DNA of 29,351 bases from a virus: the UHGV virus genome UHGV-0299584; one strand, given 5' to 3'. Both the position numbers and the translations under genes were made by a program. This document shows positions 1,633 through 27,624 of this stretch, one piece after another (within the stretch, counting starts at the first letter, position 1; each line of letters begins with the position of its first letter). Below the pieces are notes generated by a model. That model had not been told where the DNA came from and did not search any database. It saw only the letters and a program-made list of their open reading frames with translations.

Positions 1633-1848
1633 ATGGATGATAACGGAAACCAATGGATCAATGTTGAACACCGGCTACCAGAAAGCAAAGAAGGGATGTG
1701 GTCTAAAGAGGTTATAGCTCTTACTGATACTGGTGACGTGTTCAAACTATCATGTATGGGCTCTTACTGGCAGAGAACCAAGGCATTCATCGATTCAGGA
1801 GCAAGCAAGGTTACACACTGGATGCCGCTTAATTACCCAGATGATTAA
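1633..1848 (+). CDS. Small DUF551-like protein
   Basis: GAGG RBS 6 nt upstream of ATG 1633. Motifs WINVEHRLPE and VTHWMPLNYP are shared with the C-terminal domain of the 336-aa early-left protein (WISCSERMPD, VTHWREMPAAP). Confidence 0.55.
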   Translation: MDDNGNQWINVEHRLPESKEGMWSKEVIALTDTGDVFKLSCMGSYWQRTKAFIDSGASKVTHWMPLNYPDD

Positions 1849-1866
1849 AACGGATGAAAAATGAAA

Positions 1867-19783: not shown

Positions 19784-20941
19784 TTAATCCACCTTTTCAT
19801 CAACCCAATCCGCCCACCACTGCATCATTTCTCTGCGCTTATCGAGATACTGAGCATGGTTGTAAATCCCGCGCACAGATCCGCCGTTGGCATGTGCCAG
19901 TTGCGCTTCAATAGCATCAGCAGGCCATTCGTGCTCGTTCATAATCGTGCTGAATTCATGCCTGAATCCGTGACCGCTTTCCAGACCCTCATAGCCGATT
20001 TGTTTGATCACAAGTAGCACCGCGTTCTCGCAGATTGGCTTTTTCTTATCGTTGCGCCCGGCAAAAACAAACTCTGATACTGGTTTGGTGATTGAACTTA
20101 GCGTAGTGAGAAGTTCAACTACCTGGTCTGACATAGGAACCACATGAATTTTGCGTCCCTTCATCACACTGGCGTCGATGGTGATAATCCTGTTTTCAAA
20201 ATCGACGTTCTTCCATAGCATGGAACGAAGCTCTTTCGTTCTTAGGGCTGTGTAGCGTAAAACTTTGGTCGCAATGAGCGATACGATACTTCCTGAAAAT
20301 GTTGCCAGTGCTTTGTTGAATGCCGGGATCTGGTCTGCAGGAAGAAACGGGAAGTTCTTCTTGCGGTATCCCTTCATGGCGTCAGCAAGGTCAGGTGCCG
20401 GGTTATATTTAGCCCTACCAGTGACAATAGCGTAACGGAAAACCTCGCCGCATCTTCTGCGGGCTTTGTTGGCTCGCTCCATTGCACCGCGATCTTCAAA
20501 TCTGCGGATTACTTCCAGTAGTTGCATCGGCTCAATATCCTGAATTTCAAGACCGCCGATGATGGGTAAAATGTCGTCATCAAACATTTTTGCAAGTTCA
20601 TTTGCATAGCCTACTGACCAGACTTGCTTCTTGTGCTCGTACCATTCCTTGTAAATGGCGCTAAAGGAATTGTTGTTAGACGAAGCCTTTTTCGCCTTTA
20701 CCGGATCGATGCCAACCGAGATGTCTTTCCTCGCAGTCCATGCTTTATCCCTTGCCTCTTGCAAAGTCATAAGCGGATATTTTCCGACGGTCAGTATTTT
20801 CTCCTTACCGTCAATCTTGTAGCGAAGCTGCCATACCTTTTTCCCTGACACAGGGACATAAAGGTACAGGCCATTACCATCGAGTAGGCGGTATGGTTTT
20901 TCTTTCGGTTTTGCTGCTTCAATCTGCTTAACGGTGAGCAT
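19784..20941 (-). CDS. int: Tyrosine integrase (P4-like family)
   Basis: Product has the typical N-terminal arm (LTVKQIEAAKPKEKPYRLLDGNGLYLYV) and C-terminal catalytic region (...HGFRHEFSTIM..., ...RGIYNHAQYLDKRREMMQWWADW). Start ATG 20941, or GTG 20977 as in the ORF track. Confidence 0.9.
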   Translation of the reverse strand: MLTVKQIEAAKPKEKPYRLLDGNGLYLYVPVSGKKVWQLRYKIDGKEKILTVGKYPLMTLQEARDKAWTARKDISVGIDPVKAKKASSNNNSFSAIYKEWYEHKKQVWSVGYANELAKMFDDDILPIIGGLEIQDIEPMQLLEVIRRFEDRGAMERANKARRRCGEVFRYAIVTGRAKYNPAPDLADAMKGYRKKNFPFLPADQIPAFNKALATFSGSIVSLIATKVLRYTALRTKELRSMLWKNVDFENRIITIDASVMKGRKIHVVPMSDQVVELLTTLSSITKPVSEFVFAGRNDKKKPICENAVLLVIKQIGYEGLESGHGFRHEFSTIMNEHEWPADAIEAQLAHANGGSVRGIYNHAQYLDKRREMMQWWADWVDEKVD

Positions 20942-20986
20942 GGGTAAAAATCCGGTGGGTAAAATTATTTTATCCACTTTTTACCC
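20942..20986. repeat. Cluster of TTTTACCC / GGGTAAAA octamers (putative arm-type Int-binding sites)
   Basis: GGGTAAAA at 20942-20949 and 20957-20964; TTTTACCC at 20979-20986, read directly. Confidence 0.4.
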
Positions 20987-21176: not shown

Positions 21177-21196
21177 TTTTACCCGCTATTTTACCC
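21177..21196. repeat. Two further TTTTACCC octamers on the other side of the attP core
   Basis: TTTTACCCG at 21177-21185 and TTTTACCCA at 21189-21197, same motif as flanks the int start. Confidence 0.4.
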
Positions 21197-21391
21197 ATTG
21201 GCGCGGCTTAAGAGCTTATTTTTGAATTCACAATGGTCACGATATAACCATCTTGCTCGCCCGTGGATAACTTTGGCTTTAGGTAGGTCTCCGGACTTAA
21301 TCCGGTCATAGATGAAGGTCTTACCGAAGCCAGTATCGGCCATGATGAATTTCAAATCAACCAGGGAATCAGGCTGTAGTTCGTGTTGCAT
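21191..21391 (-). CDS. AlpA-family DNA-binding protein / putative excisionase
   Basis: 66-aa product with a helix-turn-helix (FIMADTGFGKTFIYDRIKSGDLPKAKVIHGRARWLYRD) resembling AlpA/Xis proteins that partner P4-like integrases; adjacent to attP. Confidence 0.65.
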   Translation of the reverse strand: MQHELQPDSLVDLKFIMADTGFGKTFIYDRIKSGDLPKAKVIHGRARWLYRDHCEFKNKLLSRANG

Positions 21392-21723: not shown

Positions 21724-21981
21724 TTACCGCACCTCCAGTCTCCATACCGCCTGACCAATCCGGCTGGCATATGTATCTTTGGATACTGCTCCGTCTTTAG
21801 CCAGCTCCATAAGAATTTTGCGCAAATCTGCCGAACGCCATTCTTCATCAGGAAATTCCTTCTCCATTGCCAACCGCAAATTCCAGGTTGCCATCCTGAA
21901 TGGATATTCCCCGCCGAGAGCTTTATCTTGCAGGGCAGCCCGGGAACGCATCACCTGCAAAACCTTCTCTTTTACATCCAT
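21724..21981 (-). CDS. Hypothetical early-left protein (85 aa)
   Basis: ATG overlaps the upstream stop (TGATG); last gene of the coupled chain. Confidence 0.6.
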   Translation of the reverse strand: MDVKEKVLQVMRSRAALQDKALGGEYPFRMATWNLRLAMEKEFPDEEWRSADLRKILMELAKDGAVSKDTYASRIGQAVWRLEVR

Positions 21982-22991
21982 CACTTCACCTCCTGCTGTG
22001 GTGCTGCTGGCATTTCACGCCAGTGCGTAACTGAGTGCGGATCCGGATATTCGGTGCCATCATCCCAGCGATTGCCATTCCACATTGCAGACCACATCTC
22101 ACCGTCTTCATACATGACCATTACCGGAATTAACTTATCCGGCATTCGCTCACTACAGCTTATCCAACCATCCGGAGTCACCGGAAGCGAGAACGGCAGC
22201 ACATCTCTGTGAACAAGTTTTTGCTGTGACAGGTTATCCAGAACTTTCTGTACTGCTGCATCACCGAATACACCAAGCGCATCTGCCATAACTCCTACAA
22301 CCTGATAAGCCTCAGCGCATACCGTGGATAAACCATCCGGAATTACCGGAGAGTTGCCGGGTTCTTTAATGTGCAAGCGAGGCTCACCATCTTTTGGTTC
22401 AGGCCACTGGCGCTCCATGTTGATCTTCAATTTATCTTCCATAGCAGCGGTAATTTCAGCATCGCTGATGCCAGCACGGCGCTGTGCATCCCACAACAGG
22501 AAATGCATATCAGCCCACTCGCTGAGATCGTCTGGTTCGGCTGCGGCTTCCAGAGCCTCTTTTGAGAGGTGTTTCAGTGGACCAATGGGGCCAACGCAGC
22601 CAAATGTGGAGTCAGACCATTTGGCATGCTCGTGGCGAATCAGTTCGCGTTCCAGTGATGCCAGTGCAATTCGTGCCAGTTCTTCCGCTTCTTCTGCTGG
22701 CAGTACAACGTTGCTACCAGGTCCGTATGTTTCGCGCCACCGCTTGATTGTCAGCAGTCGCTCTTTGGTAATAGTGCTCATGGGTTTTCCCTCCGCCATC
22801 TCTTCATCGGTTTCCCATAAAACTCGCGCCTGCCCCTCACAGACTTGAATGACTCCGCCACGACCGCAGGAGTTGCACTTAACGGCATCGTCATCCCACA
22901 AGGCGGTTTCATTTCCGCGAGCTGTTTTGACCGTGTGTGATTTATTCCCGCAGCGGCATTTGTTGAGCCAGTCAATAGTGAAAGTTTTCAT
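21981..22991 (-). CDS. EaA-like multidomain early protein (Cys cluster, DUF550-like, DUF551-like)
   Basis: N-terminal CxC...CxxC cluster (CRCGNKSH...CNSCGRGG); a central region resembling the dATP/dGTP pyrophosphohydrolase-like DUF550; a C-terminal domain sharing motifs with the 71-aa protein at 1633-1848. ATGA overlap with the upstream gene. Confidence 0.7.
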   Translation of the reverse strand: MKTFTIDWLNKCRCGNKSHTVKTARGNETALWDDDAVKCNSCGRGGVIQVCEGQARVLWETDEEMAEGKPMSTITKERLLTIKRWRETYGPGSNVVLPAEEAEELARIALASLERELIRHEHAKWSDSTFGCVGPIGPLKHLSKEALEAAAEPDDLSEWADMHFLLWDAQRRAGISDAEITAAMEDKLKINMERQWPEPKDGEPRLHIKEPGNSPVIPDGLSTVCAEAYQVVGVMADALGVFGDAAVQKVLDNLSQQKLVHRDVLPFSLPVTPDGWISCSERMPDKLIPVMVMYEDGEMWSAMWNGNRWDDGTEYPDPHSVTHWREMPAAPQQEVK

Positions 22992-23215
22992 GATGCCTCT
23001 CCTTTACTCGCTGCTTTCGCCTGCTCTTTAGCAAGTCGCTCCGCTTCTCTGAAATCCCAGTCAACTCGACGTGCTATATCAATTGCAGAACGCACGGTCC
23101 GTTCAATTAGCGCATCCAGATTATCGATTGTCATTGCCATATCTGGATTGCGAGATAAAATCTCCGCCCTCTGAATCTGCCAGTTGTTGCAGGTTTCAAG
23201 TAATGAGTTAGCCAT
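22988..23215 (-). CDS. Hypothetical small protein (75 aa)
   Basis: ATG 23215 with strong AGGAGAG RBS, 1 nt after the upstream stop; the longer ORF-track version lacks an RBS. Confidence 0.5.
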   Translation of the reverse strand: MANSLLETCNNWQIQRAEILSRNPDMAMTIDNLDALIERTVRSAIDIARRVDWDFREAERLAKEQAKAASKGEAS

Positions 23216-23216
23216 A

Positions 23217-23705
23217 TCACTCTCCTTTGATGCGAATGCCAGCGGCGCGCGGCACATTAACTTCCACAATGCGCACAGTTGGTTTGTACATCTCAATTGC
23301 TGTCAGCCAGTCAGCGCCAGTCATGCGCTTTTCTGCATCGCCAGTAGTCCACTTAACCGGTACACCAATAGCCTTCATCGCGATTTCTATTTCCCCGGCA
23401 ATGGCGCTTTTCCCGCAACCAGTAAAACCAGATACAACGACAAGAACTTCGCCTTTGGCTGGTTTTATTTCCCGCGCTTCCAGTTCTGCTATGCGCTTCT
23501 CTGCGGCTTCCAGCTCAACACGCAGCTTCCCTACCGTTAGCGCAATATCCTCGTTCTCCTGGTCGCGGCGTTTTATGTATTGCTGGTTTCTTTCCAGTTC
23601 ATCCAGTAGTGCGTTAGCTTCATCCTCTCTCAACACCACTGTGTCGAAGCTTTCGGCCTGCTTTTTGATTTTTGCAATCAGCGCCTGTTTGTTGATGTTG
23701 CTCAT
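23217..23705 (-). CDS. Hypothetical protein with coiled coil (Ea22-like?)
   Basis: ATG 23705 overlaps the upstream stop (ATGA). Coiled-coil segment (LRVELEAAEKRIAELEAREIKPAKGE); family assignment tentative. Confidence 0.55.
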   Translation of the reverse strand: MSNINKQALIAKIKKQAESFDTVVLREDEANALLDELERNQQYIKRRDQENEDIALTVGKLRVELEAAEKRIAELEAREIKPAKGEVLVVVSGFTGCGKSAIAGEIEIAMKAIGVPVKWTTGDAEKRMTGADWLTAIEMYKPTVRIVEVNVPRAAGIRIKGE

Positions 23706-24019
23706 TGGGCGGACTCCTGTGCTCCAAGTTTTGCCCATACTTCAAGGCTGTTATGCGAAATCAGCGCTTCGCGAACGCATGGCCTGTAGTAGTGATGGAA
23801 AGCGAAGGTCAGGCCGAGTTTTGTCGGGCGATCGTGTTTGCCAAGCAATCCCAGGCGAATACAGATAGTCGTTGCCGTGTAGCCAGAGTGATAGCCAGCA
23901 GCACGCTTCATGACTGTTTCTGCCAGAATGGTGCGGAAATCAGTTCGCCCGAAATTGGTACCTTCGAAAGCGGCGTTAACCACTTCGTCTGTAAGATGTG
24001 AATCATCAACTATGCTCAT
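23702..24019 (-). CDS. Hypothetical protein (105 aa)
   Basis: ATGA overlap with the upstream gene; no recognisable motif. Confidence 0.55.
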   Translation of the reverse strand: MSIVDDSHLTDEVVNAAFEGTNFGRTDFRTILAETVMKRAAGYHSGYTATTICIRLGLLGKHDRPTKLGLTFAFHHYYRPCVREALISHNSLEVWAKLGAQESAQ

Positions 24020-26673: not shown

Positions 26674-26699
26674 CAAAAATAAAGGCCGACTATGCGGCC
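26674..26699 (-). terminator. Putative intrinsic terminator after the 207-aa gene
   Basis: - strand reads GGCCG-catagt-CGGCC followed by TTTATTTTTGG; the gene's stop codon lies in the loop. Confidence 0.45.
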
Positions 26700-27313
26700 T
26701 CGGAAGGAAGTCCAATCATCTTATTCAAATCTTCTACCCGTAAAGCAGGAAGTGCTGTACTTGCTTTATCTGCTTCTTTTGGTAGCAACTCTTTGCTTTC
26801 AGGCCAAACTTCAATAAGTCGCTTAACTGTTGTGACTGAGTTCAAAGCAGCCCATACATTTGATTCGATATCCTTTTTCTTGGCTTCAAGTTTTTGTTGC
26901 AATGCGCAGATTTCATCAAACCTTTTTGTTATTTCGTGTTCTGCGTCAAACATGCATTTATCTTTTTCTGGGGTGGGGAGCAATATATCTTCACCGTTGC
27001 CGTCTTTTCCGTATGAATGCCAGCCAACTCTTCTGCCAGATACAGTCAGATAAATTGAAGCAAAACGAACATCGCATGAGTAAAATGAACATCCCAGTTT
27101 TTCAAGTTCTTCACTTATAGCTACTAACTTGGATGATAACTGATCCACTTCCTCAGTTTTCTTTTTACCGCCAAACGCAATAACTCTGGCGTCAAGTGCA
27201 AGCTGGTTCTTTAACTTTATTACTTCTTCAAGTTCAGTGAAAACCCCAGACTTAATTAAAGCGTTACGAGCGATTTCCTCTTTCATTCTCGTAGTTAAGC
27301 GGATTGATGACAT
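26690..27313 (-). CDS. Unrecognised 207-aa protein, AT-rich, between N and cIII
   Basis: ATG 27313 with GAGAGGAA RBS, 11 nt after the N stop. No transmembrane segment or motif I recognise. Visibly lower GC than flanking genes (not computed). Confidence 0.6.
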   Translation of the reverse strand: MSSIRLTTRMKEEIARNALIKSGVFTELEEVIKLKNQLALDARVIAFGGKKKTEEVDQLSSKLVAISEELEKLGCSFYSCDVRFASIYLTVSGRRVGWHSYGKDGNGEDILLPTPEKDKCMFDAEHEITKRFDEICALQQKLEAKKKDIESNVWAALNSVTTVKRLIEVWPESKELLPKEADKASTALPALRVEDLNKMIGLPSEAA

Positions 27314-27324
27314 ATTAATTCCTC

Positions 27325-27624
27325 TCAAATAAGTGGTTTGCTGCCTAATTTCATTTTCTGGCGACCAACACAAGTCACACCTATTTCACTGCGTGGCTTG
27401 CTGTAGTAAATACGGTTCTGTTTACGCTCGACTTCTTCTGCCTTCTTGCAGCGAAGGCTTCCGAGTGATGCTGCTTTATCTGCTCTGACGCAACCAGAGA
27501 GCTTTAGCGAAATTTTTCGCGCCAGTCGCTGCTCTTGCATTGCCTGTTCACGTTGAGCCTGTCTGCGTGCTCTGCGGCGATTTCTGGCGTTATCGTCAGC
27601 CAGATATGTAATGACTACTGTCAT
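27325..27624 (-). CDS. N: N-family transcription antiterminator
   Basis: 99-aa product with an N-terminal arginine-rich motif (NARNRRRARRQAQREQ). C-terminus NRIYYSKPRSEIGVTCVGRQKMKLGSKPLI matches lambda N (RTWYSKPGERGITCSGRQKIKGKSIPLI) as recalled. GGAGG RBS. Confidence 0.8.
   Translation of the reverse strand: MTVVITYLADDNARNRRRARRQAQREQAMQEQRLARKISLKLSGCVRADKAASLGSLRCKKAEEVERKQNRIYYSKPRSEIGVTCVGRQKMKLGSKPLI

Follow-up and report, generated by a model that had tools for sequence, protein, structure and literature searches.

An eaA gene from a temperate, P22-like coliphage combining a predicted MazZ-type pyrophosphohydrolase core with exchangeable modules

Background

The closest described counterpart of the gene considered here is eaA of Salmonella phage P22, whose product (gp27, NP_059588.1, 317 aa) is encoded in the early-left region between the Ead/Ea22-type genes and xis-int, and joins a PF04447 domain (formerly DUF550) to a C-terminal PF04448 domain (DUF551). 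The EaA family is common and already annotated; we found no functional study of EaA in the literature searched, which covered eaA, eaC, eaD and the exo-xis region.

The PF04447 domain can be compared with MazZ of cyanophage S-2L (PDB 7ODY), a (d)GTP-specific MazG-like pyrophosphohydrolase of the same Pfam family that converts (d)GTP to (d)GMP and is encoded in a datZ-mazZ-purZ cluster, where it supplies dGMP for 2-aminoadenine synthesis (PMC8342488). MazZ is a single-domain protein of 111 residues, whereas the EaA described below has four extra modules. A protein of Acinetobacter phage SH-Ab 15497 resembles EaA in having DUF550 fused to another module, and belongs to the Z-genome pathway; it has been measured to hydrolyze dATP and dGTP to the dNMP and pyrophosphate (PMC12884076). 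The likeness is one of description, the partner there being DUF5664, itself a dNTP pyrophosphohydrolase, while the partners in EaA are a zinc ribbon and DUF551. The activity behind the present name of PF04447 came from that two-domain DUF5664-DUF550 protein, and DUF5664 alone hydrolyzes dATP, dGTP and dUTP (PMC12884076). A third phage enzyme, Atd1 of Pectobacterium phage PcCB7V, is a MazG-like nucleotide pyrophosphatase for which an effect against host defence has been demonstrated (bioRxiv 10.1101/2022.06.09.495361); it can be likened to EaA as MazG-like by description, but has a single catalytic domain, acts on (p)ppGpp and is inactive on rNTPs.

DUF551 is also a portable domain. It is found in YfdS of the E. 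coli prophage CPS-53, where the H2O2 sensitivity of a yfdS mutant is the only phenotype reported for these DUF551 proteins (PMC4776307), and as the C-terminal part of another mosaic lambdoid early protein, variant V2 of Ea22 in Stx phages (PMC10834534), whose N-terminal partner, unlike that of EaA, is the coiled-coil Ead/Ea22 region.

Identity and operon setting of the gene

The window analyzed is a stretch of 29,351 nucleotides from the viral genome UHGV-0299584, and all coordinates refer to it. The gene and its ribosome-binding site lie as follows.

21981..22991, (-) strand: eaA-family gene, 336 codons plus a TGA stop at 21981-21983 (ORF list, tblastn and synteny)
22996..23005, (-) strand: AAAGGAGAGG, the Shine-Dalgarno of the ATG at 22991, as seen in the sequence

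The 336-aa reading frame of the original prediction is present in the ORF list, and its product is 46.7% identical to P22 EaA over residues 118-331 (tblastn), rising to 79% within the DUF550 core. Its placement in the early-left operon also held up. The gene is syntenic with P22 eaA, has the Ead/Ea22-like gene, erf and abc2 on its own strand and, as in P22, precedes xis and int; on one side are small ea-region ORFs, the Ead/Ea22-like gene, abc2, ssb and erf, and on the other xis and int. The strong Shine-Dalgarno AAAGGAGAGG (23005-22996) stands 4 nt upstream of the ATG, which shares an ATGA with the stop codon of ORF 22988-23296 just upstream, and the stop codon of eaA in turn overlaps the start of the next ORF, as read from the sequence. 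On this strand there is no promoter-like site of eaA's own; the gene is internal to the pL operon, and its translation is coupled.

The stretch 21981-22991 is eaA, here carried by a temperate coliphage of the P22 type as an accessory gene in the early-left (pL) operon; to judge from its operon position and its DUF550 plus DUF551 architecture its product belongs to the P22 EaA orthologue group. The two proteins differ in that P22 EaA has no zinc-ribbon head, and in that the N-terminal leader, the segment between the domains and the DUF551 variant are all different. In the 336-aa protein known modules are recombined in a new way, and this new combination is all that the locus adds. The earlier sequence-only reading did not identify it as eaA, a gene that has a name of its own and is very common in the lambdoid/P22 group.

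A MazZ-like catalytic core

Five modules can be told apart along the protein, all encoded on the (-) strand.

22782..22991, residues 1-70: module A, a four-Cys zinc ribbon (C12-x-C14 ... C39-x-x-C42-G-x-x-G), from conservation and PHROG 4446
22647..22781, residues 71-115: module B, a helical leader, from alignment, sequence and PHROGs 3323 and 660
22353..22646, residues 116-213: module C, the DUF550 (PF04447) MazZ-like all-alpha NTP pyrophosphohydrolase domain, from Pfam, profile and residue map
22176..22352, residues 214-272: module D, an optional helical linker, from alignment and PHROG 28884
21984..22175, residues 273-336: module E, DUF551 (PF04448), modelled as a small beta-barrel, in which the flanks are conserved (PDGWISCSERMP ... 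THW.MP) and the core is hypervariable

The region that the original prediction described as DUF550-like is assigned to PF04447, now called dATP-dGTP_PPHyd, over residues 118-213 with 140.8 bits (E=1.8e-41; gathering cut-off 23 bits), covering profile positions 1-96 of 97. The S-2L MazZ fragment scores 40.4 bits on the same model (cut-off 23), and a profile built from seven diverse DUF550 proteins finds MazZ (PDB 7ODY) with E=1.1e-7. This link is seen by profiles only, since BLASTP of the DUF550 core against the MazZ fragment gives no alignment and single-sequence phmmer against the PDB returns only chance matches.

The correspondence extends to individual residues. By hmmalign, E145, E148, E158 and D161 of EaA fall on the MazZ metal ligands E35, E38, E50 and D53, R194 falls on the transition-state R83, and K187, N191, W196 and H207 on the pocket residues K76, N80, W85 and H95; D168 aligns with MazZ D60, which lies 3.0 Å from the guanine 2-NH2 (PMC8342488). 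The four predicted metal ligands and R194 are invariant across seven diverse phage homologues, and most of the MazZ-matching residues show no variation in phages from five bacterial phyla (Enterobacteria, Mycobacterium, Microcystis, Flavobacterium and Pseudomonas phages). Homology shows residues 116-213 to be a MazZ/MazG-type all-alpha nucleoside-triphosphate pyrophosphohydrolase; the MazG fold is predicted from sequence alone, the full-length AlphaFold2 model (38 close homologues, an alignment too shallow outside DUF551) having a pLDDT of 42, too low for use, with helices predicted over 99-195. Hydrolysis of purine (d)NTPs by the core is a prediction well supported by the same homology, and the residue-level match to the crystallized MazZ makes hydrolysis of dGTP or dATP a concrete and cheaply testable one. 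The nucleotide specificity of EaA is not fully predictable from MazZ because N20, which makes the O6 contact there, is unique to S-2L (PMC8342488).

A role in a Z genome was considered for EaA and rejected, there being no purZ or datZ among its neighbours. No candidate for a PurZ-sized ORF was seen in the window, outside which lie some 10 kb of a P22-sized genome, and in tblastn against phage records the other ORFs of the window resemble P22-like structural, integration and early genes only.

A typical role in the all-alpha NTP pyrophosphohydrolase superfamily is house-cleaning, and EaA might simply remove non-canonical purine dNTPs (dITP, dXTP, 8-oxo-dGTP) from phage DNA synthesis, as cellular enzymes of the MazG/RS21-C6 type do, with no role in conflict with the host. 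The match to MazZ does place the core in this group (MazZ itself also weakly matches PF12643, MazG-like), and DUF550 has a wide distribution, in lytic as well as temperate phages and across many hosts. We nevertheless think this distinctly unlikely, as the characterized members of this Pfam family have canonical dGTP and dATP as substrates, and the attached binding modules and their turnover would be left unaccounted for.

The zinc-ribbon head and the start of translation

The Cys cluster noticed in the original prediction does have the conservation of a zinc ribbon: none of W8, C12, C14, C39, C42 and G46 varies among 75 fused homologues or among 31 sequences that are nearly all free-standing proteins of 60-77 aa. 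PHROG 4446 matches the head with E=1.1e-9. In Pfam no family reaches its cut-off on this segment (the best, PF05207, scores 18.8 bits against 29.2), NCBIfam yields nothing significant, and a profile search of the PDB gives matches only at the level of the CxxCxGxG motif, such as Anti-TRAP (E=0.007). Assignments to the Pfam families Zn_ribbon_CSL and TBPIP/Hop2 were rejected, their scores being under their own cut-offs.

Only 7 of the 120 closest EaA homologues carry the ribbon, which elsewhere is joined to dozens of unrelated tails. Those without it start at the equivalent of M71, the first residue of module B, and the M71 ATG of the present gene has its own GGAGGG Shine-Dalgarno 7 nt upstream. 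The main product might on this account begin at M71, with the ribbon in effect a separate small upstream gene that has lost its stop codon, and the 336-aa fusion a minor or non-functional product. The use of this start by 113 of the 120 homologues speaks for such an arrangement, as do the free-standing members of the ribbon family and the RefSeq annotation of a head-carrying relative, which calls M71 and leaves the head unannotated. Against it, the frame runs from the head to M71 without a stop codon, the first ATG comes with its strong Shine-Dalgarno and ATGA overlap, and the uninterrupted fusion recurs at no less than 89% identity in 42 protein clusters with different tails and with both variants of module B; both products could, moreover, be made. 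We regard the shorter product as an improbable choice for the main one. The recurrence of the fusion in so many clusters and with different tails also led us to reject a sequencing or assembly error as its source.

The DUF551 tail and a second DUF551 gene

The C-terminal DUF551 assignment of the original prediction was recovered by PF04448, which matches residues 275-332 with 65.3 bits (E=9.2e-18; gathering cut-off 22 bits). The domain is C-terminal in 272 of the 274 proteins of the set examined. Its model (pLDDT 86.3) agrees with BFVD models of DUF551 proteins at TM 0.7-0.84 (probability 1.00) and resembles the SH3, Tudor and Sm binding folds, these fold matches being weak: Foldseek of the model against the PDB gives no match with E below 0.6, and a PDB profile search with DUF551 gives nothing.

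A second copy had been proposed near the other end of the window, next to rha.

1633..1848, (+) strand: free-standing DUF551 gene, 71 aa plus stop, between the rha-like and small terminase genes (Pfam and hhalign)

Its product scores 39.6 bits on PF04448 (E=9.8e-10), and the gene lies about 220 nt downstream of the Rha-family gene at 871-1413 (PF09669), so that both the domain and the neighbour were correctly called. The ATG start gives 71 aa, and a mechanical ORF finder extends the frame to a GTG at 1630. An identical protein is encoded in about 1000 public contigs.

The relationship proposed between the two copies is real but distant. Direct alignment gives 23% identity over 56 aa with a marginal E=0.029, while a profile of EaA tails aligns with one of the 72-aa family at an hhalign probability of 98.6% (E=1.2e-15), and the signature W-I-x6-P ... 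T-H-W-M-P is found in both. By these sequence comparisons the two are old paralogues from different subfamilies; a recent duplication was rejected at 23% identity.

Mosaicism of EaA

Across the 120 closest homologues, identity lies at 91-100% in the DUF550 core; in the DUF551 tail the median is 37%, and 105 of the homologues fall below 50%. Module D, on which no Pfam family scores above cut-off, is 97-100% identical in 105 of the 120 and cleanly missing from the others. Judged by such sequence comparisons, modular shuffling between genomes is strongly supported, the core being nearly constant while the tail varies and the ribbon comes and goes; the part of the original prediction that saw shuffling in the presence of DUF551 at two loci of one genome did not survive, the two copies being so far apart and of different subfamilies. 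A nearly frozen enzyme core beside exchangeable binding modules suggests where the specificity of these proteins resides.

The same contrast, of a hypervariable DUF551 core with an enzyme core at least 91% identical, would be expected if EaA were a counter-defence enzyme whose MazZ-like domain removes an alarmone such as (p)ppGpp, or a chain-terminating or signalling NTP, rather than bulk dNTPs, with DUF551 tracking a fast-evolving host target. Atd1 provides a precedent, since it depletes (p)ppGpp and restores T5 plating 10-fold on a retron-TIR strain (bioRxiv 10.1101/2022.06.09.495361); eaA lies among host-takeover genes such as the anti-RecBCD gene abc2, and DUF550 adjoins DNA methyltransferases and nucleases in other phages. 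On the other side, the pocket residues of EaA match those of the dGTP-binding MazZ, Atd1 has been described only as MazG-like, and tail variability may reflect nothing other than relaxed constraint and recombination among old cassettes. PADLOC likewise provides no link, having no match at E <=0.01 for either the eaA product or the free-standing DUF551 protein. We consider this reading unlikely.

A more elaborate version would make the EaA proteins targeted arms-race effectors, in which a near-invariant MazZ-like enzyme is brought to different host or defence components by DUF551 cassettes swapped through their conserved flanks. The zinc-ribbon head added in this lineage would act likewise, and would also provide dozens of unrelated tails with a shared N-terminal handle. 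On that view the free-standing late DUF551 protein would count as another binder of this class. We give little credence to this idea.

Proposed function and spread

The explanation that we favour, and think reasonably probable, is that eaA is an early accessory gene for a MazZ-type purine (d)NTP pyrophosphohydrolase built of exchangeable modules, which reshapes the nucleotide pool. The core would dimerize or tetramerize like MazZ and bind Mg2+ or Mn2+ through E145, E148, E158 and D161, with R194 stabilizing the transition state, and would cleave a purine (d)NTP to the monophosphate and pyrophosphate, dGTP or GTP being the most likely substrate and dATP a possible one. The zinc ribbon and the DUF551 beta-barrel would be non-catalytic binding modules, tethering or targeting the enzyme to nucleic acid or to a host protein; since DUF550 occurs alone in other phages, they should be dispensable for catalysis. 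Made early in infection or induction, such an enzyme would shift the guanine and adenine nucleotide pool in favour of the phage, and its present combination of modules would have arisen by recombination at conserved module junctions. The biological role of EaA may be nucleotide-pool conditioning or counter-defence; what a phage with ordinary DNA would gain is left unexplained by our main explanation.

EaA-type genes are very common, and DUF550 is found in hundreds of phage records. It occurs alone or with other partners in mycobacteriophages and in Microcystis, Flavobacterium and Pseudomonas phages, and 365 Klebsiella phage records have it, including that of the Drexlerviridae (T1-like) phage KP36. 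Of 5426 complete E. coli genomes, 2629 contain matches to segments of the eaA gene, at up to nine places in a genome. This spread in E. coli, together with predicted dNTP hydrolysis on a temperate phage, could be read as prophage defence, the enzyme depleting dNTPs to exclude superinfecting phages in the manner of the dGTPase and dCTP-deaminase defence genes. The pL operon is repressed in lysogens of P22 and lambda. Within it eaA is translationally coupled and lacks a promoter-like site of its own on its strand; DUF550 is abundant well beyond lambdoid and P22-like phages, and the PADLOC search brought no match, all of which make this reading very improbable indeed. About 900 E. coli genomes have only the module B segment, of some 100 nt, in common with the eaA gene.

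Gene identity and genomic setting

The window covers about 29 kb from a P22-like (Lederbergvirus-type) coliphage, with the genes in vegetative order, and is most closely matched at the DNA level by Escherichia phages Louie, IME10, CurroJimenez and Dewey and Shigella phage Sf6, at 91-97% identity but with query coverage of only 35-57%. It runs through Rz, rha, a small DUF551 gene, DUF2560, the small and large terminase genes, the structural genes and int; past a putative xis lies a leftward operon with repressor-proximal genes, an Nmad5 protein, erf, ssb, abc2, DUF2737, several unknown ORFs, an Ead/Ea22-like protein and the eaA-family gene of interest here.

1633-1848, plus strand: small DUF551 ORF (PF04448, 39.6 bits, cut-off 22), next to a rha-family gene (PF09669)
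19784-20977, minus strand: int
21191-21391: putative xis, from position only (Pfam gives no match)
21981-22991, minus strand: eaA-family gene, 336 aa (ORF list)

The 336-aa protein had been predicted to combine DUF550 with a C-terminal DUF551, and Pfam finds both above cut-off: PF04447 at residues 118-213 (140.8 bits, cut-off 23, E=1.8e-41) and PF04448 at residues 275-332 (65.3 bits, cut-off 22). It is a homologue of P22 EaA (46.7% identity over residues 118-331, tblastn against phage records), which has the same PF04447 plus PF04448 architecture, and it occupies the place equivalent to that of P22 eaA, which in P22 has eaD/eaI on one side and eaG, eaC, xis and int on the other. Homologues are publicly named 'EaA protein', 'Eaa prophage protein', 'DUF550 domain-containing protein' or 'dATP/dGTP pyrophosphohydrolase domain-containing protein'.

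A predicted pyrophosphohydrolase core

PF04447 is named after the DUF5664-DUF550 protein of Acinetobacter phage SH-Ab 15497, which converts dATP and dGTP to dNMP and pyrophosphate in the 2-aminoadenine (Z-genome) pathway (PMC12884076, PMC8342488). Because this eponymous activity came from a two-domain protein, whose DUF5664 partner is itself a dNTP pyrophosphohydrolase (PMC12884076), the cleanest biochemical anchor is the (d)GTP-specific MazZ of cyanophage S-2L (PMC8342488). A DUF550 profile built from seven proteins (EaA, P22 EaA and those of Klebsiella phage KP36, Mycobacterium phage Bask21, a Microcystis phage, Flavobacterium phage Fpv5 and Pseudomonas phage phi297) had a single significant match among solved structures, S-2L MazZ (7ODY, E=1.1e-7), and the aligned MazZ fragment alone scores 40.4 bits on PF04447, above the cut-off.

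With both proteins aligned to this profile and roles taken from the MazZ paper, the Mn2+ ligands of MazZ (E35, E38, E50 and D53) are matched in EaA by E145, E148, E158 and D161, and its pocket residues K76, N80, W85 and H95 by K187, N191, W196 and H207. EaA R194 falls on R83, 2.8 Å away from the β-phosphate, and D168 on D60, 3.0 Å from the guanine 2-amino group (PMC8342488). Invariant in all seven phage homologues are F130, G131, H141, E145, E148, E158, D161, K187, N191, R194 and W196. A full-length AlphaFold2 model from a shallow alignment reached a pLDDT of 42, too low to confirm the fold. Homology shows this early-operon accessory protein to hold a predicted MazZ-type catalytic centre, and the DUF550 domain very likely has metal-dependent purine (d)NTP pyrophosphohydrolase activity.

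The domain would presumably oligomerise as in MazZ and hydrolyse dGTP/GTP, possibly also dATP, to monophosphate and pyrophosphate early in infection, with the zinc ribbon and the DUF551 barrel perhaps acting as binding or targeting modules. Since DUF550 occurs in many phages alone or with other partners, these extra modules appear to be accessories. A Z-genome role is ruled out by gene context within the window. For a phage with ordinary DNA, one candidate benefit is conditioning of the nucleotide pool; another may be removal of an alarmone or immune nucleotide, by analogy with the viral MazG-like Atd1 (bioRxiv 10.1101/2022.06.09.495361). House-cleaning of non-canonical nucleotides is a third candidate. 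The pL operon is repressed in lysogens of P22 and lambda, and this location, together with the abundance of DUF550 beyond lambdoid and P22-like phages and the lack of any PADLOC match, makes a role in prophage defence unlikely.

A mosaic of five modules

Aligned with its closest homologues, the protein resolves into five modules.

Modules of the 336-aa protein, with tallies over its 120 closest homologues
A, residues 1-70: zinc ribbon; in 7/120
B, residues 71-115: helical leader, two variants; 115/120, median identity 54%
C, residues 116-213: DUF550; 120/120, 91-100% identical
D, residues 214-272: helical linker; 105/120 at 97-100% identity, cleanly absent in the rest
E, residues 273-336: DUF551; 120/120, median identity 37%, 105 under 50%

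At least 80% of the gene in one piece was found neither in phage records nor in 5426 complete E. coli genomes; the best matches extend over the final 702 nt (modules C to E), at 99.6% identity. The nearest full-length protein (P0001 in our set of database proteins, 345 aa, 85% identical) shares modules A to D and differs in E, and the exact 336-aa sequence has a single record, an ENA contig 33,898 nt long. As the combination is unmatched in one piece while its parts are found elsewhere, the protein is a new recombinant assembled from known parts. Neither the family, nor its two Pfam domains, nor the mosaic character of this genome region is new; modestly new are this module combination, a promiscuously fused zinc-ribbon head without a Pfam or NCBIfam model, and the contrast, now quantified, between a near-invariant enzyme core and an exchangeable DUF551 cassette.

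The exchangeable DUF551 domain

The original observation holds in every particular, including the second, free-standing DUF551 and its rha neighbour. Though the two copies are only 23% identical (BLASTP, E=0.029), a profile of 16 EaA tail variants aligns with one of 26 members of the 72-aa family at 98.6% probability (hhalign, E=1.2e-15), and both copies carry the signature W-I-x6-P ... T-H-W-M-P. The exact 71-aa protein is present on ~1000 contigs. Some of its variants, such as P0144 (73 aa, 281 contigs), terminate in '...ARLHTGCRLITQMIKTDEK', an ending that the +1 frame ORF at 1733-1864 (plus strand) of the window encodes, so a frameshifted form of the small gene circulates.

Modelled with 23 diverse sequences, residues 273-336 form three main strands and two short bridges (AlphaFold2, pLDDT 86.3, pTM 0.69). 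Foldseek gave no significant match to this model in the PDB; among predicted viral structures it found DUF551 proteins from many phage types (TM 0.7-0.84). The 274 domains collected, C-terminal in all but two (272/274), form 33 clusters at 70% identity with representatives of 58 to 90 aa, and conservation is mostly limited to two flanks, PDGWISCSERMP and THWMPLPEPPQEVK. DUF551 has been described as a portable domain, found in CPS-53 YfdS (PMC4776307) and a Stx-phage Ea22 variant (PMC10834534).

The zinc-ribbon head and a possible internal start

An exhaustive HMMER search with residues 1-70 yielded 127 cluster representatives, 42 of which carry a head at least 89% identical on proteins of 116-393 aa from separate 50%-identity clusters. 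The tails of 75 head-bearing proteins include DUF551 (10), DUF550 (2) and DUF3850 and ASCH (2 each), the majority being without a Pfam domain. The head (22782-22991, minus strand; database proteins P0149-P0210) is a shared N-terminal handle for differing tails of up to ~320 aa. At 32-57% identity, more remote relatives stand alone as proteins of 60-77 aa, in phages of Acinetobacter, Vibrio, Klebsiella and others. W8, C12, C14, C39, C42 and G46 are invariant throughout, the second knuckle having the form CxxCGxxG, and no curated family was found in Pfam, NCBIfam or a PDB profile search. Among complete E. coli genomes the head occurs in 6/5426 and the adjoining module B in ~900. M71 retains its own Shine-Dalgarno sequence (GGAGGG, within the codons for E-G-K-P ahead of it) and RefSeq starts one head-bearing relative there, so a shorter product from this internal start is possible.

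Expression signals

The eaA ATG is preceded at 4 nt by a strong Shine-Dalgarno sequence, AAAGGAGAGG. It shares an ATGA with the stop of the preceding ORF, and the eaA stop in turn overlaps the GTG/ATG start of the ORF that follows (21724-21984), in GTGATG, which places the gene within a translationally coupled operon. The final codons (CAG GAG GTG AAG TGA, Q-E-V-K; CAGGAGGTGAAGTGA, window 21979-21996, minus strand) include the AGGAGG Shine-Dalgarno of the next gene. Most DUF551 tails end in a conserved 'PPQEVK', which therefore doubles as a gene junction, whose conservation the AGGAGG may help explain. No promoter-like sites were found near the ORF on its strand, and terminator-like hairpins on that strand lie only further downstream, three of them, with T-runs, 3' of the ORF following eaA and ahead of the putative xis:

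21687-21666, minus strand: terminator-like hairpin
21655-21636, minus strand: terminator-like hairpin
21459-21440, minus strand: terminator-like hairpin

The whole scanned region holds 8 terminator-like sites, against 3.2 ± 1.9 in shuffled sequence.

Other genes of the leftward operon

The Nmad5 ORF (26690-27373, minus strand, 227 aa) gives a full-length match to PF18757, 'nucleotide modification associated domain 5' (E=1.5e-69), and sits between erf and an ORF (27325-27624) that is putatively antiterminator-like, by position only. Its homologues are common 'hypothetical proteins' of lambdoid and Stx phages, and distant ones overlap or adjoin annotated thymidylate synthase genes in two ~70-kb Salmonella phages. 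The Ead/Ea22-like protein (23217-23738, minus strand, 173 aa) has a Walker-A-like motif (VLVVVSGFTGCGKS) in a short C-terminal module after a coiled-coil part; at ~75 aa, this module seems too small to be a complete P-loop NTPase.
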